From the NCBI GenBank assembly GCA_964542785.1, contig CAZIUK010000001.1:133115-197114 (forward strand): DNA of 64,000 nucleotides, given 5' to 3'. Positions 2,659 through 62,455 of the stretch are shown here, one piece after another (position 1 is the first letter of the stretch; each line of letters starts with the position of its first letter). This DNA is from an uncultured Planctomycetales bacterium (GTDB lineage Bacteria; Omnitrophota; Gorgyraeia; Gygaellales; Profunditerraquicolaceae). Position numbers and translations under genes: made by a program. The notes below the pieces were generated by a model. The model did no database searches, was not told where the DNA came from, and was given only the letters and a program-made list of their open reading frames with translations.

Positions 2659-3648
2659 ATGAAGATTGTTGTGGATGCAATGGGAGGGGACCATGCGCCT
2701 AGGGTTGTAGTAGAAGGCGTAGTTGCCGCTGTGAGGGAGTTTGGCGTAGAGGTTATACTCTGCGGAGATGAGGCAAAGATAGCGCCCCTCTTAAAGAAGA
2801 TAAAGTATTCAGGTAACAACATAGAGGTCCTTCATGCCCCGGAGGTAATAGATATGTGCGAGCCTGCTGCTAATAGTGTGCGCCGTAAAAGAAAATCCTC
2901 AATTGTTCTGGGGCTTAACCTTATTAAAACCGGAGTAGCCGGTGCTTTTTTTAGCGCCGGAAATACCGGGGCAGTAGTCTGTGCGGCTACTTTAGAGTTA
3001 AGGATGTTGCCGGGGGTAGAGAGGCCGGGCATAGGCATAGTTACCCCCGCGTTAAAAGGGGTATCTTTTATTATTGATGTTGGAGCAAATATAGATGCTA
3101 AGCCGGAGCATTTACTTCAATACGGGATTATGGCAGATGCCTATTGCCGCAATATCTTAAATAAAGATAACCCTACGGTGGGGCTATTAAATATCGGAGA
3201 AGAGGAGGCCAAGGGGACTGATTTTATGCGCCATACCCACGAGCTTCTTTCTAAGAGCAGGCTTAATTTTATCGGTAATATTGAAGGCAAGAGTTTATTT
3301 AGCGGTAAGAGCGATATTATTATTACGGACGGCTTTGTAGGCAATGTCGCCTTGAAGGTTTCAGAGAGTGCGGCAGAGGCAATGCAGACCTTTTTAAAAA
3401 GGCATCTTTTAAGTAACCTTATGGGAAAGATTGGGCTGTTTTTTCTTTTGCCGAGCCTAAAGCGCTTTAAAAAAGATATTGATTATGCCGAATACGGAGG
3501 GGCGCCTCTTTTAGGGGTAAATGGCGTAGTCATTATCGGGCATGGTCGTTCTAATGCCCGGGCAATAAAGAATGCAATTAGGGTAGCCAATGAACAGATA
3601 AAGCGTAAGGTTAATGATAAGATATTAGAAGCTATTAAGCATAGCTAA
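2659..3648 (+). CDS. plsX: phosphate acyltransferase PlsX
   Basis: MKIVVDAMGGDHAP N-terminus; rpmF-plsX-fabHDG-acpP-fabF synteny. Confidence 0.9.
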   Translation: MKIVVDAMGGDHAPRVVVEGVVAAVREFGVEVILCGDEAKIAPLLKKIKYSGNNIEVLHAPEVIDMCEPAANSVRRKRKSSIVLGLNLIKTGVAGAFFSAGNTGAVVCAATLELRMLPGVERPGIGIVTPALKGVSFIIDVGANIDAKPEHLLQYGIMADAYCRNILNKDNPTVGLLNIGEEEAKGTDFMRHTHELLSKSRLNFIGNIEGKSLFSGKSDIIITDGFVGNVALKVSESAAEAMQTFLKRHLLSNLMGKIGLFFLLPSLKRFKKDIDYAEYGGAPLLGVNGVVIIGHGRSNARAIKNAIRVANEQIKRKVNDKILEAIKHS

Positions 3649-19583: not shown

Positions 19584-20762
19584 ATGAAAAAAGAAGAAAT
19601 ATTCGATAGCTATCAAGAAAATATAATGCCTACATACTCAAAATCCCCTTTAATTTTTGTAAAGGGTAAAGGTTCAAGGTTGTGGGATATACATAATAAT
19701 CTTTATTTAGATTTTTTCCCGGGTTGGGGTGTTGGGAACTTAGGGCATTGTCATTCTAAGGTTATGTCAGCGATAAGAGACCAAGTGTCAAGGTTGATAT
19801 TTGTACCTAATAATTATTACCATGTTCCCCAGGCAAGGTTGGCAAGAGAGTTAGTTTTATCTTCTTTTCCTGCAAAGGTATTTTTTTGTAACTCCGGGGC
19901 AGAGGCAAATGAGGGGGCGATAAAATTTGCGCGTAAATTTGGCTCCGGAAGGTATGAGATAATTACTTTTGAGGGCTCTTTTCACGGTAGGACAATGGCT
20001 ACTTTAAGCGCTACGGGACAGAAAAAATACCAGCAGGGTTTCGAGCCTCTGCTGCAAGGGTTTAAGGCGGTTAAGTTTAATGATCTTCAGGCGGTTAAAG
20101 ACGCAATAACTGATAAGACTATAGGAATCATGCTTGAGCTTATTCAAGGAGAAGGGGGCATAAACGTAGCAGATAAGGATTTTGTTTTGGGTTTAAGAAG
20201 GCTCTGTGATGAGAAGGGCTTACTTTTGATTGTAGATGAAGTGCAGACCGGGATCGGCAGGACAGGAAAATTGTTCTCCTATCAACATTACGGGATAACC
20301 CCGGATATTATGACTTTGGCAAAAGCTCTTGGAGCAGGGGTGCCTATTGGTTGTATGTTAGTTAAAAAAGACATTGCAGATACCTTAACCGCAGGCACTC
20401 ATGCATCTACTTTTGGTGGCGGGCCGGTAATATGTAAGGCTGCACTTGCTGTCTTAAGGGCGATAAAAAAAGAAAAATTACTTATTAACGCCCAAAAGAT
20501 GGGTGAATATATGTTTACTCTGCTTAATGCGCTTAAAGGTAAGCATCAGGCTATAAAAGATATAAGAGGCATAGGCTTAATGGCAGGAGTTGAGTTAAGG
20601 GTTGAAGGCAAGGCAATAGTACAGGAGTGTATGAATAGGGGGTTATTGATTAACTGCACTCAAGAGAAGGTTTTAAGATTGATGCCTGCTTTAAATGTAA
20701 AGAAGAAGGAGATTGCTAAAGCCATCTTTACTTTAGACAGCGTTCTGGGGGACGCTTCCTAA
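19584..20762 (+). CDS. argD: acetylornithine aminotransferase
   Basis: Class III PLP aminotransferase (DEVQTGIGRTGK); last codons and stop lie inside a REP element. Confidence 0.85.
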   Translation: MKKEEIFDSYQENIMPTYSKSPLIFVKGKGSRLWDIHNNLYLDFFPGWGVGNLGHCHSKVMSAIRDQVSRLIFVPNNYYHVPQARLARELVLSSFPAKVFFCNSGAEANEGAIKFARKFGSGRYEIITFEGSFHGRTMATLSATGQKKYQQGFEPLLQGFKAVKFNDLQAVKDAITDKTIGIMLELIQGEGGINVADKDFVLGLRRLCDEKGLLLIVDEVQTGIGRTGKLFSYQHYGITPDIMTLAKALGAGVPIGCMLVKKDIADTLTAGTHASTFGGGPVICKAALAVLRAIKKEKLLINAQKMGEYMFTLLNALKGKHQAIKDIRGIGLMAGVELRVEGKAIVQECMNRGLLINCTQEKVLRLMPALNVKKKEIAKAIFTLDSVLGDAS

Positions 20763-20805
20763 GGTGCCAGGCTCCAGGAAAGTTTACTTAAAAATTATGA
20801 AAAAG
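20745..20805 (+). repeat. REP-like element copy A (CTGGGGGACGCTTCCTAAGGTGCCAGGCTCCA + conserved tail ...TTACTTAAAAATTATGAAAAA)
   Basis: About 85% identical to 61114-61178 and shares GGGGACGCT..AAGGTGCCAGGCTCCA with 46648-46680 and the inverted copy at 47387-47404. Confidence 0.8.
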
Positions 20806-21717
20806 GATTTAGTTTCTATCAAGGACTTAACTGCTCAAGAGATAAGCGGAATATTTTTACTTACCGATAAGCTTAAGAAAAATAGCAATAGGTTCGCTAA
20901 GGCCATCAAAGGAAAAACATTAGGGTTAATATTCCAAAAACCATCTAACAGGACTAGGGTCTCTTTTGAGGTAGGTATGTACCAATTAGGAGGTAATGCG
21001 CTTTATCTTTCTCCTGAAGAGATTAATTTAGGAGTAAGGGAGTCAATAGCAGATGTAGCCAAGACCTTATCAAGGTATCTTGATGGAATAGTATTAAGGA
21101 CCTTTGAGCATGATACTTGTCTTAAGATGGCTTCCTTTGCCTCTATTCCTATTATAAATGGTTTATCTGATTATTCTCACCCTTGCCAGGCCTTAGCAGA
21201 CCTTTATACCATAAAAGAAAAGTTAAAAAGTTTTAAAGGCATAACCTTAGCCTATATCGGCGACGGGAATAATGTTTGTAATTCACTTCTCTTTGCCTGC
21301 GCTAAATTAGGGGTTAATATGAATGTTGGCTCTCCTTTTGGTTATCAGCCGAAAGAATCAATTCTTCAAAGTGTTCAAGTAGAAGCAGAAACAAACAACT
21401 CAACTATCAGTCTATTTGATAATGCTAAGGAGGCAATAGAAAACGCGGATGTAATTTATACCGATGTCTGGACGAGTATGGGGCAAGAGGAAGAGGCCTT
21501 AGCTAGAAAAAAGGCATTTGAAAGTTTTCAGGTAAATAAAAATTTGTTAAAACTGGCTAAAGATAATGTGTTGATAATGCACTGTCTTCCTGCGCATAGA
21601 GGCGAAGAGATAACCGACGAAGTCTTAGACAGCAAAAATTCAATTATCTTTGACCAAGCAGAGAACAGGCTGCATGTTCAGAAGGCGATATTGATAAAAT
21701 TATTAAGAATAGATTAA
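20797..21717 (+). CDS. argF: ornithine carbamoyltransferase
   Basis: STRTR, HCLP motifs; start set at ATG 20797 inside the REP tail (track start 20764 lies inside the REP hairpin). Confidence 0.85.
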   Translation: MKKDLVSIKDLTAQEISGIFLLTDKLKKNSNRFAKAIKGKTLGLIFQKPSNRTRVSFEVGMYQLGGNALYLSPEEINLGVRESIADVAKTLSRYLDGIVLRTFEHDTCLKMASFASIPIINGLSDYSHPCQALADLYTIKEKLKSFKGITLAYIGDGNNVCNSLLFACAKLGVNMNVGSPFGYQPKESILQSVQVEAETNNSTISLFDNAKEAIENADVIYTDVWTSMGQEEEALARKKAFESFQVNKNLLKLAKDNVLIMHCLPAHRGEEITDEVLDSKNSIIFDQAENRLHVQKAILIKLLRID

Positions 21718-31421: not shown

Positions 31422-31453
31422 TTAAATAAAGCGAAAGGGGGTGAGTTTAAGAT

Positions 31454-31699
31454 ATGGCAGAAAAACTCGTGAAGTTAGGAATCAAAAGGGAAAAAGGTTA
31501 CCTCTATTTTATTGATAAGCAAGGCGATGTTTCATGTACTAAAATGGCACGCGGCGCTAAAAAAGGCGGTGGAAAGAAGAAGGTAGCCAAGTGTGGCATC
31601 AAAAGAAAAGACGGTTACCTTTATTTCCTTGATAAAAAAGGCGATGTTTCTTGTGCAAAGATGAAAAGAGGCGGAAAGAAGAAAAAGAAGAAAAGATAA
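31454..31699 (+). CDS. small (81 aa) lysine-rich protein made of two tandem 35-aa repeats (G[IV]KRxxGYLYFxDKxGDVSCxKMxRG)
   Basis: Internal tandem duplication visible at protein and DNA level (about 80% nt identity between 31493-31545 and 31604-31656); Lys/Gly-rich tails. Confidence 0.5.
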   Translation: MAEKLVKLGIKREKGYLYFIDKQGDVSCTKMARGAKKGGGKKKVAKCGIKRKDGYLYFLDKKGDVSCAKMKRGGKKKKKKR

Positions 31700-45251: not shown

Positions 45252-45671
45252 ATGTCAGAAAACAATAGACACTCCTTTACTCTCATAGAAGTTTTAGTTG
45301 TTATAGTCATTATTGGTATTCTTTCTGCAATAGCTATCCCGAATTTTAACAAGACAAAGTATAATGTTTTAAGTAAAGAGGCAGTCTCTAATATCAGACT
45401 TATTGCTGCGGCTGAGAAAATATATAAGATGGAGAGCGATGAAGATGTGTATGATTCTTGCGATAATACTGCGGAATGTAATGATACCCTTAAGTTGGAT
45501 TTAAATGACTCTAATTGGGTTTATAGCGTTAAAACTACCTCTACCCCTTTAAGCGTAGCTACGATAAAAGCGGAATTAAAAGGGAATTTAAATTGCACAT
45601 ATACTTTAACTAGTAGTGATTTTAATGCCGATCCTGAAAAATCACGCAACTGCCCTGACGGGATGATTTAA
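45252..45671 (+). CDS. prepilin-type minor pilin
   Basis: RHSFTLIEVLVVIVIIGILSAIAIPNF. Confidence 0.6.
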   Translation: MSENNRHSFTLIEVLVVIVIIGILSAIAIPNFNKTKYNVLSKEAVSNIRLIAAAEKIYKMESDEDVYDSCDNTAECNDTLKLDLNDSNWVYSVKTTSTPLSVATIKAELKGNLNCTYTLTSSDFNADPEKSRNCPDGMI

Positions 45672-45685
45672 GGTAAAAGTAAGAA

Positions 45686-46045
45686 GTGAATAAAAAAGCC
45701 TTAACCCTATTAGAAATCCTCGTCTCCTTAATCATTATTTCTTTAGTGATTACTGGCTTGGCAAGCACCTTTGTAATTGGAAAGCGTTATATTTATAAAA
45801 GCAGGTTAAAGATTTCAGGCGCAGAATTAGGAAAGTATTTTTTAGACTCTCTTCAGAGGCATGTTAATTATTCTACTTGGTATGATACGGACAACTCCTT
45901 AGGCCCTAAAGGTCCCAAAAAATATTTTGAAAAAATAACTATAGATGACAGGGATTACAAGGGTACTTATGAAATCGATACTGTTGACTCGTCGGATAAT
46001 CTTACCAAGGTAACGGTTTCTATAACTTTGCCTGCTATTGAATAA
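45686..46045 (+). CDS. prepilin-type minor pilin (PilV/GspI-like)
   Basis: KKALTLLEILVSLIIISLVI; Glu5 present. Confidence 0.55.
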   Translation: MNKKALTLLEILVSLIIISLVITGLASTFVIGKRYIYKSRLKISGAELGKYFLDSLQRHVNYSTWYDTDNSLGPKGPKKYFEKITIDDRDYKGTYEIDTVDSSDNLTKVTVSITLPAIE

Positions 46046-46638
46046 TGCCTTACCAGAATAAATCTATAACCTTAATGGAGCTTTTGATAGCACTTGTCTT
46101 AATGGGGCTTGTTATCCTCGGTATAAATAGTATTACTATATTCAGCCGTTATCAACTTATCTCTCTTGACCGCAGGATTAAAGTACAGAACGATCTTTCT
46201 TTTTGCCTGGATCATATTGCTAAAAGAGGTTTAAGTACCATAGGTAATGAAAAGGTTTTTGGCGAGAAAACAGCTGTTGTGATTGAGACAGACACTTCTT
46301 TGGCGCTTTATATTGACGCTCCTAGATCTTCTCTTGGCATTAGGGATGTTAACGACTATTGGATAAAATATACTTTTGATAAGTCTTCTAACCGGTTGTT
46401 GTATTGCAGTAATTGCGGGGCTTCTTCTGCCTGTCTTAATTGTAGAGAGGAAGGGAAAGAAGAGGTTTTATCTGGCATAATAACTTCTTTTAAGCCCGGT
46501 AAAAATTTTAGCGAAGGGAATTATGTATATGTTAAAATTTCAGGCCGTTGGGACCCTTCTAAGGAAAAGGATTCTGTAGATAATCCCGAAGTAATTATGC
46601 GCTCTACCATTTACTTGCCATCCGTCTCCACCAACTAA
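46045..46638 (+). CDS. prepilin-type minor pilin (PilW/GspJ-like)
   Basis: NKSITLMELLIALVLMGLVILG; ATG overlaps preceding stop. Confidence 0.55.
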   Translation: MPYQNKSITLMELLIALVLMGLVILGINSITIFSRYQLISLDRRIKVQNDLSFCLDHIAKRGLSTIGNEKVFGEKTAVVIETDTSLALYIDAPRSSLGIRDVNDYWIKYTFDKSSNRLLYCSNCGASSACLNCREEGKEEVLSGIITSFKPGKNFSEGNYVYVKISGRWDPSKEKDSVDNPEVIMRSTIYLPSVSTN

Positions 46639-46647
46639 ACCCTAAAT

Positions 46648-46680
46648 CCTGGGGGACGCTCTCCAAGGTGCCAGGCTCCA
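46648..46680 (+). repeat. REP-like element copy B (left flank of RAYT)
   Basis: CCTGGGGGACGCTCTCCAAGGTGCCAGGCTCCA. Confidence 0.8.
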
Positions 46681-46762: not shown

Positions 46763-47353
46763 ATGCCTAGAGCAAATAGGTTGATTTTGGACAGAGGGTA
46801 TTACCATGTCTTTACAAGAGGTAATGACCGAAAGCAAATATTTAGAAAAGATGCGGATTATCAGGTTTTTATTTCTATCGTAAAACGATACCTAAAAGAA
46901 GTTTTATTGGCAATAACAAATTATTGTTTAATGCCGAATCATTTACATTTGCTTATCTTTACTGAACGAGGAGATGATCTCTCTATTTTTATGAAGAATA
47001 TCCTACAGGTATATGCTAATTACCACAGAAAGGAATATAATTCCGTAGGGTTTCTTTATCAGAATAGGTTTAAAAGTTTATTAATAAATAATGATAGTTA
47101 TTTGTTAGAATGTTCCAGGTATATAGAGCGCAATCCATTACGGGGAAAATTAGTAAGCAATATATTTGATTGGCCTTGGAATAGTTTTTCCTACTATGCA
47201 AAAGGAGATACTAATGGTATAATTACCAAAGAAAATCCGGCCTTTCAATCTTTAGGTAGCTTACTTAAAGACAGAAGAACCTCTTATATTAATTATGTTT
47301 TACAGGAAAGGCCCTATGATGAGATTCTTGATAAGGTATTTGAATTAAAATAA
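46763..47353 (+). CDS. REP-associated tyrosine transposase (RAYT; IS200/IS605 Y1 HUH transposase family)
   Basis: YHVFTRGN, HUH motif MPNHLHLL, catalytic-Tyr motif RYIERNPL; ATG 46763 preceded by GGAGGTGG RBS (track start 46754 is GTG). Confidence 0.75.
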   Translation: MPRANRLILDRGYYHVFTRGNDRKQIFRKDADYQVFISIVKRYLKEVLLAITNYCLMPNHLHLLIFTERGDDLSIFMKNILQVYANYHRKEYNSVGFLYQNRFKSLLINNDSYLLECSRYIERNPLRGKLVSNIFDWPWNSFSYYAKGDTNGIITKENPAFQSLGSLLKDRRTSYINYVLQERPYDEILDKVFELK

Positions 47354-47355
47354 GT

Positions 47356-47404
47356 CCTTGGGGACGTTCCCCAAGTGCCTGACACCTGGAGAGCGTCCCC
47401 CAGG
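47356..47404 (+). repeat. REP-like elements copy C (right flank of RAYT; hairpin plus inverted copy of left REP)
   Basis: CCTTGGGGACGTTCCCCAAG, then TGCCTGACACC, then TGGAGAGCGTCCCCCAGG. Confidence 0.8.
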
Positions 47405-47415
47405 GGACAGGTTTG

Positions 47416-47491
47416 GGGGCTGTAGCTCAGCTGGGAGAGCGCCTCGTTCGCAACGAGGAGGCCAGCGGTTCGATCCCGCTCAGCTCCACCA
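47416..47491 (+). tRNA. tRNA-Ala (anticodon CGC)
   Basis: 76-nt cloverleaf: acceptor GGGGCTG/CAGCTCC with G3:U70 Ala identity pair, D-stem GCTC/GAGC, anticodon loop TTCGCAA, T-arm AGCGG-TTCGATC-CCGCT, encoded CCA. Confidence 0.85.
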
Positions 47492-47557
47492 CTTTTGTGA
47501 AAAAATTTAAGTTGTAGTATTTAAGTAGCTATAGTTTTAACAGGCAAGATAAGAAAG

Positions 47558-59117: not shown

Positions 59118-60077
59118 ATGTTTGTAGATGAAGCAAAGATCTTTGTAAAAGCAGGCAGCGGAGGCAAGGGTTGCGCAAGTTTTCGGAGGGATAGATTTAT
59201 CCGTTATAGAAAGCCCGACGGCGGGGATGGCGGCCGTGGCTCAGATATAATACTCTTAGCAGATAAAAAGATCTATACCCTTCTAGATTTTCATTACAAC
59301 CGCCACTTTAAAGGTGCACATGGCGCAAATGCCTCTAGCAATGATAAAAAAGGCAAGGACGCAGAGCCGGTTATCATACGTGTTCCGGTAGGTACAGTTA
59401 TCACAGATATTAAGACCAATTGCCTTTTGCGCGATTTAGAAAAAGAGGGAGAGCAGGTTGTAGTTGCCTTAGGCGGCAAGGGTGGGTTAGGCAGTAAGCG
59501 TGCGCCAAACAATGAAGCGCAGATTGGAGAACCCGGGGAAGAAAGAGAGCTCTTCCTTAATCTAAAACTAATTGCGCAGGCAGGATTAGTAGGGTTCCCC
59601 AATGCTGGAAAATCTACCCTGATATCCAGTATCTCAAACGCTAAGCCGCAGGTAGCAGCTTATCCATTTACTACCAAGTTTCCTGTTTTAGGGGTGGTAA
59701 GGGGTGAGTCTGCTGATTTTACAGTAGCAGATATCCCCGGCCTTATTAAGGGCTCTTGTGAGGGAAAGGGGTTAGGGGATAAGTTTTTAAGGCATATAGA
59801 GCGGACTAAGGTTTTAATACACGTAGTTGATATCTCAGGGTTTGAGGGTAGAGACCCTGCCTTAGATTACAAGGCGATTAACCAGGAGTTAAAAAAATAT
59901 AGTACTTTTTTAATAAAGAAACCGCAGGTTATTGCTTTAAATAAAATTGACCTTCCGCAGGCAAAGGAGAATTTAAAGCGGTTTAGGAAAACAATTAAAA
60001 AAGAAGTCTTTCCTATTTCAGCGTTGAACAAAATAGGGCTAGAGGATTTAATAGATGCTGTTGCGAAAAAAATATAA
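59118..60077 (+). CDS. obg: GTPase Obg (short form, no C-terminal OCT/TGS domain)
   Basis: Gly-rich Obg fold (FVDEAKIFVKAGSGGKG, GGDGGRG), G-domain GFPNAGKST. Confidence 0.85.
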   Translation: MFVDEAKIFVKAGSGGKGCASFRRDRFIRYRKPDGGDGGRGSDIILLADKKIYTLLDFHYNRHFKGAHGANASSNDKKGKDAEPVIIRVPVGTVITDIKTNCLLRDLEKEGEQVVVALGGKGGLGSKRAPNNEAQIGEPGEERELFLNLKLIAQAGLVGFPNAGKSTLISSISNAKPQVAAYPFTTKFPVLGVVRGESADFTVADIPGLIKGSCEGKGLGDKFLRHIERTKVLIHVVDISGFEGRDPALDYKAINQELKKYSTFLIKKPQVIALNKIDLPQAKENLKRFRKTIKKEVFPISALNKIGLEDLIDAVAKKI

Positions 60078-61179
60078 AAGGATAGTAATAAAGATAGGCT
60101 CAAGCCTTTTTTATGCTAAGGACGCTAAGCCCGATACTGCTGTAATCAGTAGTTTTACTAAAGAGATAGCAAATTTAATCCTTATAGGAAAAGAGGTGGT
60201 GCTTGTCTCCTCAGGCGCAGTTGCCTTAGGGATGTCCATATTAAAGATAGCTAAGAGGCCTAAGGATTTAAGCCTTTTGCAGGCAGCTGCTTCAATTGGC
60301 CAGCATGAGTTAATGCATTTGTATAGTACTTTTTTTAAGAAGCTATCCTTATCCTGCGGGCAGATACTTTTAACTTGGGATGATTTCTCAAACCGCGCGC
60401 GTTATTTAAACGCCAAAAATACTATCAACACACTTTTAAAACTAAAAAGTGTGCCGGTAATTAACGAAAATGATACCGTCTCTACTGAGGAGATAAAGTT
60501 TGGGGACAACGACCGGCTTTCAGCTTTGGTCGCGGCCATGGTAGGGGCTGATATTTTGGTTATTCTTTCAGATATAGACGGGTTATTGGATAAAAATAAA
60601 AAAGTTATCAAGGTTGTAGATAAAATTACCCCAGAGATTAAGGCGTTGGCATCTTCTACTAAAAGGACAACTTCTGTTGGGGGGATGGTTACAAAGTTAG
60701 ATGCTGTTTTAGTTGCTAACCGTTCAGGTATCCCTTGCGTAATAGCCAACGGCAGAAAAAAAGATATTCTTCAATCTGTTTTAGGCGATCCTCTAAATAG
60801 TGGCACGCTTTTTTTAGCTGAAGGAGATAAGCTTGACGCTAAGGAGCGCTGGATGGCGTTTGGCACTAAGGTTAAAGGGAATATAACGGTTGATGACGGA
60901 GCAAAGAAGGCATTGATTAATAATAAGAGCTTGCTTGCAGTAGGAGTTGTCTCTTGTGCAGGTAATTTTTCTTGTGGAGATATAGTGGGGATTTGCGATG
61001 CTAAGGGTTGTGAGTTTGCCCGGGGCAAGGCCTTTATTTCAATGACAGAACTTGAGAAGGTAAAGGGAGCTCGCTTTGCCAAAGAAGTCATCCACCGCAA
61101 CAACCTTGTTTTACTTGGGGACGCTCCCCAAGGTGCCAGGCTCCAAACAAACTTACTTAAAAATTATGAAAAAAAATAG
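60055..61179 (+). CDS. proB: glutamate 5-kinase (with PUA domain); C-terminal about 20 aa encoded by a REP element
   Basis: IVIKIGSSLF amino-acid kinase N-terminus, PUA domain; ORF reads through REP copy D to TAG at 61177. Confidence 0.85.
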   Translation: MLLRKKYKRIVIKIGSSLFYAKDAKPDTAVISSFTKEIANLILIGKEVVLVSSGAVALGMSILKIAKRPKDLSLLQAAASIGQHELMHLYSTFFKKLSLSCGQILLTWDDFSNRARYLNAKNTINTLLKLKSVPVINENDTVSTEEIKFGDNDRLSALVAAMVGADILVILSDIDGLLDKNKKVIKVVDKITPEIKALASSTKRTTSVGGMVTKLDAVLVANRSGIPCVIANGRKKDILQSVLGDPLNSGTLFLAEGDKLDAKERWMAFGTKVKGNITVDDGAKKALINNKSLLAVGVVSCAGNFSCGDIVGICDAKGCEFARGKAFISMTELEKVKGARFAKEVIHRNNLVLLGDAPQGARLQTNLLKNYEKK

Positions 61180-61223
61180 GAATTTTAGAAGTAAAGTGGT
61201 ACCTCTGGGAGCGTCCCCAAGAG
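61114..61223 (+). repeat. composite REP-like element copy D: hairpin CTTGGGGACGCTCCCCAAG + GTGCCAGGCTCCA + conserved tail with ATG + inverted hairpin CTCTGGGAGCGTCCCCAAGAG
   Basis: 61114-61178 is about 85% identical to 20745-20805; 61203-61223 is an inverted copy of the REP core. Confidence 0.8.
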
Positions 61224-62455
61224 ATGTTGCAAAGGGGGCGGCTGAGTCAGCAAGGGTGTTGGCTAACCTATCTGCGCTAGAGAAGAATAGAATCCTGCGT
61301 GAAATGGCGCGCGCCTTGCTTAAAAACAAAGATGTAATTATAAGAGCCAATAAGAAGGATTTAGCAGCAGCAAAGAGGATAGGATTATCAAACGCCTTAA
61401 TTGACCGCCTTACTTTAAATACAAAGCGTCTGTATGATATGGCTGATGGGCTTATAAATGTCGTTAAACTCCCAGATCCTATTGGTGCTGAGATTAAGGC
61501 TTGGGATACTCCTTTAGGGTTAAATATACATAAGGTTCGCGTCCCAATAGGGGTTATTGCTATTATTTACGAATCTCGGCCGAATGTAACTGCTGATTGC
61601 ATCGGGCTTTGTTTTAAGTCCGGCAATAGCGTAATCCTAAAAGGCGGCAGTGAAGCGTTAAATTCAAATATTGCGATATACAAAGTTATTGAAGGGGTTA
61701 TTAAGAAGAATAAACTCCCTTTAGGCATAGTTAATCTCATTGCCACAAAGGATAGAAAGGTTATTGATATTTTGCTTAAGCAAAATGATTATATTGATTT
61801 AGTTATGCCGCGCGGAGGCGAAGCGTTAATTAAAAAAGTAGTTGCAACATCAAAGATACCGGTAATCAAGCATTACAAAGGCATTTGTCACATCTATGTT
61901 GATGATTACGCTGACTTAAATATGGCTGAAAGAGTTTGTTTCAACGCCAAAGTTCAGCGCCCCGGAGTCTGTAACGCAATGGAGACGATGCTCGTGCATA
62001 TAGATGTAGCAGGAAGGTTTCTTCCTTCAATGTTAAATAAGTTTCAAAGCGCCGGGGTTAAGATTTACGGCTGCCCGCTTACTCAGAAGATATACAAGGG
62101 TAAAATAGAAAAAGCCACAGAAGCAGACTTTGGTACAGAATTTTTAGATTTAGTTTTATCAGTTAAGGTAGTATTTGACATTAATGAGGCGATAAGCCAT
62201 ATAAATACCTTTGGCTCGCATCACTCAGATGCGGTTATTACCGAGGATAAGAGAAGCGCGCAGGAGTTTCTAAAAAAAGTTGACTCTGCCTGTGTTTATC
62301 TTAATGCCTCTACGCGTTTTACCGACGGAGGAGAGTTCGGCATGGGAGCTGAAATAGGTATCTCTACTGATAAGCTTCACGCCCGCGGGCCCATGGCGCT
62401 TGAGGAACTTACAACTTATAAATATGTTATATACGGTAACGGCCAAACCCGGTAG
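61166..62455 (+). CDS. proA: gamma-glutamyl phosphate reductase
   Basis: Aldehyde dehydrogenase family with catalytic Cys (GVCNAMET); start set at ATG 61166 inside REP tail (in-frame GTG 61196 also possible). Confidence 0.8.
   Translation: MKKNRNFRSKVVPLGASPRDVAKGAAESARVLANLSALEKNRILREMARALLKNKDVIIRANKKDLAAAKRIGLSNALIDRLTLNTKRLYDMADGLINVVKLPDPIGAEIKAWDTPLGLNIHKVRVPIGVIAIIYESRPNVTADCIGLCFKSGNSVILKGGSEALNSNIAIYKVIEGVIKKNKLPLGIVNLIATKDRKVIDILLKQNDYIDLVMPRGGEALIKKVVATSKIPVIKHYKGICHIYVDDYADLNMAERVCFNAKVQRPGVCNAMETMLVHIDVAGRFLPSMLNKFQSAGVKIYGCPLTQKIYKGKIEKATEADFGTEFLDLVLSVKVVFDINEAISHINTFGSHHSDAVITEDKRSAQEFLKKVDSACVYLNASTRFTDGGEFGMGAEIGISTDKLHARGPMALEELTTYKYVIYGNGQTR

Follow-up and report, generated by a model that had tools for sequence, protein, structure and literature searches.

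When a palindromic repeat lies at the junction of two genes of an operon, does it supply the codons with which one gene ends and the next begins, or have the genes kept their own? This question is raised by a stretch of 64,000 nucleotides (the window) from an uncultured Planctomycetales bacterium of the GTDB lineage Omnitrophota (contig CAZIUK010000001.1). Its plus strand carries an arginine operon in the order argJ-argB-argD-argF-argG-argH, as assigned by Pfam and NCBIfam, and the argD/argF junction holds an element, here called W1, that resembles repetitive extragenic palindromic (REP) sequences. Judged by its ArgF and ArgD homologues, the organism belongs to Candidatus Omnitrophota. The initial annotation proposed that W1 supplies both the argD stop codon and the argF start codon, and that its hairpin couples the translation of the two genes. 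In the present study, we reach a different overall reading, which we hold with good confidence: W1 is a decayed REP unit, argD takes its stop codon from it, and the ATG of argF is ancestral. The features of the junction are given below.

19584..20762, plus strand: argD, acetylornithine aminotransferase, 392 aa (Pfam, NCBIfam), with residues 389-392 (G-D-A-S) encoded by REP sequence
20745..20796, plus strand: W1, a lone and decayed REP unit between the last conserved Leu codon of argD (CTG 20745-20747) and the argF ATG
20745..20764, plus strand: degraded core palindrome of W1, CTGGGGGACGCTTCCTAAGG (consensus CTTGGGGACGCTCCCCAAGG), with C>T changes at 20757 and 20760
20760..20762, plus strand: argD stop codon TAA, made from an in-frame CAA of the REP
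20764 (20764..20796), plus strand: alternative in-frame GTG start of the public annotation P0001 (317 aa), which would add 11 REP-encoded residues, MPGSRKVYLKI
20783..20796, plus strand: A/T-rich REP tail of W1, TTTACTTAAAAATT, complement of the family GTAG tag, here GTAA (TTAC 20784-20787)
20797..21717, plus strand: argF, ornithine carbamoyltransferase, 306 aa, from an apparently ancestral ATG, with Pfam OTCace_N position 1 aligned to residue 3

Repeat unit between argD and argF

From the end of argD into argF, the DNA reads GTT CTG GGG GAC GCT TCC TAA GGTGCCAGGCTCCAGGAAAGTTTACTTAAAAATT ATG AAA AAG, with TAA at 20760-20762 and ATG at 20797-20799, as had been described. The canonical GTAG-first orientation of the unit is the minus strand. 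Its 32-nucleotide (nt) core, CTKGGGGACGCTnnnnAAGGTGCCAGGCTCCA, is found at 20745, 46649 and 61114 with 91-100% identity. Over the 60 nt of 20745-20804, W1 is 87% identical to the copy at the proB/proA junction (61114-61173), including 21/21 positions over TTACTTAAAAATTATGAAAAA. An nhmmer profile located six units at four loci in the 64-kb window (20745+, 46649+, 47357+, 47403-, 61114+ and 61221-). Apart from the shortness of the element, nothing speaks for chance similarity or an assembly artefact, and the probability of either is negligible: an 18-nt core pattern gave 6 matches on both strands against 0.00 expected (100 shuffles), the three forward cores had nhmmer E-values of 4e-7 to 3e-8, and the same family is present in other Omnitrophota contigs. 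Since an independent Logan assembly (L009) contains an identical argD/argF junction, the junction is not a product of misassembly. The label REP-like was a fair one, as the window holds both a repeat family and a REP-flanked gene for a REP-associated tyrosine transposase (RAYT).

The core of W1 has decayed. It was first described as a CCCC to TTCCT variant; the change is actually two C>T transitions, at 20757 and 20760, which turn CTCCCCAAGG into CTTCCTAAGG and leave the length unchanged. The second converts the in-frame CAA of the REP into TAA, and the first falls in the same stem. Because of both changes, one of which also makes the stop codon, the hairpin is weakened to -3.8 kcal/mol from the -12.8 kcal/mol of the 8-bp stem in the consensus copy at proB/proA. 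The 71-nt region around W1 folds no better than its shuffles (z = 0.11). W1 no longer forms a meaningful hairpin, and a hairpin-mediated coupling of argD and argF at this site is not supported. As a separate observation, W1 differs from the left unit of proB/proA at eight positions, five of them clustered in a 7-nt linker that reads GGAAAGT in W1 and AACAAAC in the other copy (window 20757-20783). Consensus scans found no promoter- or terminator-like site on the plus strand at the argD/argF or the proB/proA junction; a role as a promoter (-35/-10 hexamers) or as an intrinsic terminator (G+C-rich stem and T run) was rejected at both on these scans.

Stop codon of argD

The usual C-terminus of ArgD is ...ILDEALR or ...VLKGL at a length of 389-391 aa (120 homologues), and position 380 of 381 in the NCBIfam argD model aligns to residue 388. 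Because the homologue C-termini and the model end before them, G-D-A-S and the stop codon are REP sequence; together with the C>T origin of the TAA, this confirms the proposal that the repeat encodes the last ArgD residues and the stop codon. At the stop position, CAA is kept in the units at 46649 (W2) and at proB/proA (W3) and in the related contigs L001, L002, L010, L011, L016 and L021, and where it is kept, ArgD or ProB is lengthened by 13-22 residues. Long LGDAPQG... tails of this kind are found in the ArgD homologues P0126, P0128 and P0167. The further claim that the repeat had become part of two coding sequences stands for argD and falls for argF, since only argD demonstrably contains REP sequence. 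In ArgD homologues of more distant Omnitrophota (P0137, P0203, P0212 and P0240; P0135, P0143 and P0147), unrelated repeat-like C-terminal extensions were seen (ADALPVGTGKGQSPSGTVP...; RLNDKVKRGGIPPEIS), which suggests that other repeat families colonise the end of argD too.

The junction in related lineages

We compared the argD/argF junction with that of six other lineages (L012, L020, L003, L010, L011 and L021). In the REP-free L012 (ArgD 81%) and L020 (84%), the genes are joined by a 4-nt ATGA overlap, ...GCT TTG AGATGA AG... and ...GCG CTA AGATGA AA..., respectively; the Shine-Dalgarno (SD) sequence of argF in L012, GAGG, lies inside the argD end (-5.9 kcal/mol). These bare overlaps identify W1 as an insertion. 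The sister lineage L003 (ArgD 93%, ArgF 87%) has no more than 24 nt there, GGGGATGTTCCTTACGAGGAGAGA, and after these come a TGATG overlap and a strong SD (-8.7). From its sequence this remnant looks like the start of a C>T-decayed REP, and its position at the same site suggests that the insertion predates the split of the window lineage and L003. In L010 (80%), a unit of another type (type A, below) is read in frame, ArgD is longer by 19 residues and an ATGA overlap has been re-formed. L011 (79%) and L021 carry a complete inverted pair of REP units, or REPIN (REP doublet forming a hairpin), between the genes; ArgD enters its left arm and argF has its own SD. When the window, L003, L010, L011 and L012 were aligned, homology stopped at the Leu codon and resumed exactly at the argF ATG. 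The series of the window, L003, L010, L011, L021 and L012 shows several stages in the absorption of a repeat at one junction.

A quick neighbour-joining tree of ArgD (no support values) placed the REP-tailed proteins of the window and L003, P0126, P0128 and P0167 in one clade, interleaved with REP-free forms of 389 aa. This favours repeated insertion, or precise loss, at argD/argF. A single ancient insertion is less likely than recurrent events, because REP-bearing and REP-free ArgDs interleave and the REP-free ones share a clean ILDEALR/ATGA end.

Start codon of argF

The ATG at 20797 had been chosen as the best match to the ornithine carbamoyltransferase N-terminus, and the choice holds: the Pfam and NCBIfam OTCase models begin at residues 1-3 of the ATG-form ArgF, and 82/120 homologues, 303-308 aa in length, begin MKKDL[ILV]. 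The codons ATG AAR AAR GAT (MKKDL) are found at the same position in the REP-free L012 and L020, in the sister L003, and in L010, L011 and L021. The cores of W3L, W3R, L016R, L011R, L018R and L014R are followed by the same kind of tail, (C/T)TACTTnAAAAWT, and therefore TTTACTTAAAAATT belongs to the REP element; the family-wide similarity ends at AAAAWT, before the argF ATG. TTACTTAAAAATT is REP tail, and ATGAAAAA encodes M-K-K, ancestral for argF. On these comparisons, the start codon of argF appears to be ancestral and not supplied by the REP.

The model in which the REP gives argD its stop and argF its start, with the hairpin coupling translation, is very improbable as a whole. It accounts for the TAA inside the REP core, for the 21/21 identity of TTACTTAAAAATTATGAAAAA with the proB/proA copy and for the lack of an SD before the ATG; it is contradicted by the same start codons in REP-free relatives, by the MKKDL of most homologues, by a tail that stops short of the ATG and by the decay of the hairpin.

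A second possibility is that argF starts at GTG 20764, just after the argD TAA with a gap of one base, so that ArgF would have 317 aa, including 11 REP-encoded residues. In its favour, no stop codon interrupts the frame from 20764 onwards, an SD-like GGGGGA (-8.4 kcal/mol) precedes the GTG and the deposited prediction P0001 uses this start. We nevertheless consider it improbable, because GGGGGA is 11 nt from the GTG, the region is mostly paired (unpaired probability 0.29, versus 0.60 for the ATG), the homologues of 303-308 aa begin with MKKDL, and the family models start no more than three positions from the N-terminus of the ATG form. The deposited 317-aa model probably begins 11 codons too early.

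As the initial annotation stated, no SD precedes the ATG: the duplex with the anti-SD is only -3.3 kcal/mol, and an AGGAAAG is misplaced 15-21 nt upstream. The other arg genes give -5.1 to -8.9 kcal/mol, and argF in four relatives gives -4.9 to -8.7 kcal/mol. The spacer from TAA to ATG is 34 nt, and the argF SD is absent because the insertion displaced the ancestral one, now about 50 nt from the ATG. SD-independent initiation is not exotic here, since about half of the crudely called genes of the window also have no clear SD. The start region of the ATG is as open as the starts of the neighbouring genes.

Proposed history of the junction

The history that we propose for the junction begins with argD and argF joined by a 4-nt ATGA overlap, the argF SD lying within the end of argD, as was the original state in this Omnitrophota clade. 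A REP unit now stands between the last conserved Leu codon of argD and the argF ATG. Having lost its own stop codon, argD reads through four REP codons (G-D-A-S) and ends at the TAA made by a C>T change; that change and the second one have abolished the hairpin. Although its ancestral SD was displaced by about 50 nt, argF has kept its ancestral ATG and MKKDL. It would be translated either by re-initiation 34 nt after the argD TAA or by an SD-independent start on the unstructured A/U-rich tail. We infer that W1 is a tolerated scar and not an adapted device. The single unit could be what is left of a full REPIN at this junction, of the kind seen in L011 and L021; its right half and the argF SD would have been deleted across an 8-nt microhomology, ATGAAAAA. 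Judged from the sequences, a deletion of this kind may account at once for the singlet, the missing SD and the 21/21 identity.

Several points weigh against this history. The 21/21 identity with the proB/proA copy extends through ATGAAAAA, and, judged by the REPIN loops of other loci, ATGAAAAA probably lies within the element at proB/proA; the argF ATG may physically come from the host or from a recombinant joint inside the microhomology. The public annotation starts argF at GTG 20764, whose SD-like match is the better one (-8.4). The AGGAA of the W1 linker is complementary to the mutated stem TTCCT, giving a small alternative hairpin around the stop codon, and this pairing hints at some selection on structure. 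In addition, the census of copies covers the 64-kb window only.

The linker pairing also enters the argument for exaptation, in which the REP remnant is kept to set the ArgD:ArgF ratio, either by uncoupling the genes and replacing the SD with an A/U-rich enhancer or through the UUCCU...AGGAA hairpin. At least five lineages have REP units at argD/argF, and 5/5 examined have them at proB/proA. Furthermore, E. coli REPs within 15 nt of a stop codon were reported to stall ribosomes and reduce translation of the gene before them (Liang, Rudd and Deutscher 2015, cited in PMC12306157), and the present case is alike in that an operon carries a REP across the stop codon of its upstream cistron or no farther than 15 nt from it. 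That effect, however, needs a stable hairpin just past the stop; W1 has lost its hairpin, and at proB/proA the stop lies in the loop, so that the geometry differs. Moreover, the local fold of W1 is no better than that of shuffles. In L003, the element is cut down to 24 nt and a TGATG overlap with a strong SD (-8.7) has formed again, as expected of a burden. The forms of the junction also vary by lineage (singlet, REPIN, type A or type B), which does not fit one selected function. Exaptation is therefore unlikely, and W1 is better regarded as a scar.

Repeat family and its transposase

Comparison of the window with related contigs revealed two types of unit, type B, CTKGGGGACGCTCCCCAAGGTRCCAG...(C/T)TACTTnAAAAWT, and type A, GGGGACGCTCCCCAARGGGRCACTCCCC. 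In type B, the A/T-rich tail is complementary to the GTAG tag known from many REP families; the tag reads GTAG in L011, L016 and L014 and GTAA in W1, W3L and W3R, and no tag is evident in W2 or W4. REPINs also occur in L011, L016, L018 and L021, and the units are patchily present at the same junctions among close relatives. The copies associated with the transposase gene lie as follows.

46649..46680, plus strand: W2, a REP core that precedes the RAYT gene by 83 nt
46763..47353, plus strand: gene for a RAYT-like Y1 (HUH) transposase of 196 aa (Pfam Y1_Tnp, E 3.5e-14), which presumably mobilises the REP family
47357..47403, inverted pair with no single strand: W4, a short REPIN made of two inverted units (-34.7 kcal/mol, z = -3.6), 3 nt past the stop codon of the RAYT gene
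47416-47491: tRNA-Ala, which follows W4

REPs thus flank the RAYT gene on both sides, with the W2 core upstream and the inverted pair W4 downstream. For the RAYT-like protein, the best NCBIfam model is REP_Tyr_transpos, at 70.4 bits (E 1.4e-19) under a cut-off of 80, and the IS200 model gives 17.5 bits. When the protein was aligned with E. coli TnpA-REP (4ER8), its HLH fell on HMH (HUH motif) and its YIERNP on YIYINP (catalytic tyrosine). From its sequence and placement, the gene at 46763-47353 is presumed to encode the RAYT-type transposase that mobilises, or formerly mobilised, the family. A listed open reading frame (ORF) at 47358-47510 is spurious, since it overlaps the W4 REPIN and the tRNA-Ala. 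An Rfam search of the window at gathering thresholds returned only this tRNA, and hence the repeat is not a described RNA family.

A REP pattern with 24 specified bases, scanned over genome and metagenome contig collections, was found at one locus in each, on a contig foreign to the genome of the window (L001 and L002). The L001 core (3076-3106 of CAZAPC010000001.1, a metagenome-assembled genome labelled Planctomycetales) is identical to W2 over 32 nt and has surroundings of higher G+C; mis-binning, transfer or a wider distribution of the family are all possible. In L002 (1520-1600 of Ga0172371_10073182), the family is represented by a REPIN that interrupts priA in frame (…KCLGDALQGARLPLESVPSESVPQ…), in the frame seen in the ArgD and ProB tails.

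Intact REPIN at the proB/proA junction

The idea that a repeat may donate a start codon, which failed at argD/argF, does hold at proB/proA, where the features are as follows.

60055..61179, plus strand: proB, 374 aa, with the last 20 residues, GDAPQGARLQTNLLKNYEKK, from the REPIN left arm and loop
61114..61221, plus strand: W3, an intact REPIN of 108 nt (left unit 61114-61165, right unit 61181-61221) spanning proB/proA
61166..62455, plus strand: proA, 429 aa, starting at the ATG of the REPIN loop, with about 19 N-terminal residues through the right arm (VVPLGASPR)

The hairpin of W3 has an energy of -49.2 kcal/mol (z = -5.85), and 0/200 shuffles were as stable. Its apical loop holds both the proA ATG (61166) and the proB stop codon TAG (61177-61179). 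Nearly all ProB homologues have 354 aa and end in ...NIVIL. For ProA, position 9 of NCBIfam PRK00197 aligns to residue 20; alignments with 120 single-domain representatives begin at a median of residue 23 and leave the protein with a median excess of 12 residues at its N-terminus. L016 and L018 keep an ancestral proA start downstream of the right arm (MKKDIIKIAKDAA and MDIIRISKNAA), and in the window and its sister L014 about 26 nt are missing, including that start. Since the ancestral start is deleted, proA starts at the loop ATG. The loop is element sequence, because its motif AAAAATAGGRAA recurs in the REPIN of L021 at another locus (argD/argF). On this sequence evidence the REPIN supplies the start codon of proA. 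An alternative, in which ATG 61166 is the ancestral proA start and the REP was inserted after codon 3, was rejected on account of the ancestral start in L016 and L018 and the occurrence of AAAAATAGGRAA elsewhere. The TTACTT that flanks the left unit was considered as a target-site duplication and was likewise rejected; the same tail follows cores at other loci and in the other orientation. With both signals in the loop of a strong hairpin, it is plausible that translation of proA is coupled to that of proB. The proB/proA REPIN is the more instructive locus of the two and a clear instance of a gene that takes its start codon from within a REPIN.

REP units were present at proB/proA in all five lineages examined. 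In L018, the REPIN lies 2 nt past an intact stop codon; in L016, it is fused to proB; L019 has two tandem direct units (2573-2650), and L014 has the right arm only. A further unit was seen in the proA/nadD spacer of L019 (3906-3924), and the argF/argG spacer of L021 (5238-5330) holds a different palindrome, GGGACCGTTTCTATTTTTTAATTAAAAAATAGAAACGGTCCC; palindromic repeats thus fill intercistronic spacers of related Omnitrophota operons as well.

The REP is read in the same frame (L-G-D-A-x-Q-G) in ArgD, in ProB and at the internal PriA site of L002. With so few independent events, this shared frame is only suggestive. It belongs to a broader proposal, which we think has little probability, that the REPIN family is a recurrent building block of intercistronic junctions in a streamlined Omnitrophota clade: it would land, or be retained, at the last in-frame Leu codon, always in one frame (L-G-D-A-P-Q-G in ArgD, ProB and PriA), donate stop and start codons, and enforce obligatory coupling at proB/proA. 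If this were true, only a ribosome translating proB would open the -49 kcal/mol hairpin that holds the proA ATG and the proB stop codon.

Comparison with known repeats

The family resembles the REP/REPIN-RAYT systems of E. coli, Pseudomonas and Stenotrophomonas in its short G+C-rich palindrome, of which several scattered copies were seen, and in its inverted doublets that form long hairpins. Like them, it has a Y1/HUH gene flanked by repeats and lies between co-directional genes near the 3' end of the upstream one. In GTAG-tagged REPs, such placement between co-directional or convergent genes is the rule, REP termini often give the flanking ORFs their stop codon, and some REPs lie within genes, many of them for replication or repair (Di Nocera et al. 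2013, PMC3733652); the priA insertion of L002 fits the last group. Unlike known REPs, the window family has an Omnitrophota host, a GTAA tag in the window copies, a long A/T-rich tail and a RAYT score of 70.4 against the cut-off of 80 bits. In the literature searched, we found no paper that links REPs to Omnitrophota.

The units are also less extragenic than the name implies: W1 overlaps the 3' end of argD, and W3 overlaps the 3' end of proB and the 5' end of proA. This does not exclude them from the REPs, as accepted families have such exceptions (PMC3733652), and, as the genes here adjoin without spacers, units come to lie inside coding ends far more often than the word suggests. Overlapping cistrons offer a mobile palindrome no extragenic place, and the flanking genes absorb insertions through new stops, new starts and lost SDs.

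A second likeness is to the Rickettsia palindromic elements (RPEs), reportedly described by Ogata and colleagues in 2000 as selfish repeats that lie in frame within protein-coding genes. RPE-4 and RPE-6 have been equated with CGTC REPs (PMC3733652). The likeness lies in a repeat that conserved proteins tolerate as a translated part (in ArgD the tail, in ProB 20 residues, in ProA about 16 residues, and in PriA of L002 an internal insertion). It is a functional likeness only, with no sequence relationship expected. Unlike RPEs, the insertions described here are mostly terminal extensions that follow from a stop or start lost beside an intercistronic REP, and a RAYT is present.

Coupling by overlap of stop and start codons (ATGA, TAATG) is the ancestral state of argD/argF (L012, L020) and has been re-formed in L003 (TGATG) and L010 (ATGA); unlike these, the window junction has a spacer of 34 nt without an SD. 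REPs that overlap gene ends and provide stop codons are already described, and REP biology is unchanged by our finding. Its practical side concerns gene models: those of ProB and ProA carry repeat-encoded ends, and gene callers will probably often be misled by REPs at junctions in such genomes.

Other features of the window

Over the whole 64 kb (1-64000), crude calling gave about 62 ORFs of 120 aa or more, all of them on the plus strand, an extreme co-orientation. At 31450-31695, just upstream of a uvrA-like gene, a small and very basic ORF contains two tandem coding repeats of 117 nt (KLGIKREKGYLYFIDKQGDVSCTKMARG..., twice); the internal ATPase duplication of the uvrA-like gene itself shows as repeat D1. 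Three consecutive small genes at 45252-46638, ending just before W2, have prepilin-type N-terminal methylation motifs and are type IV pilin- or pseudopilin-like.

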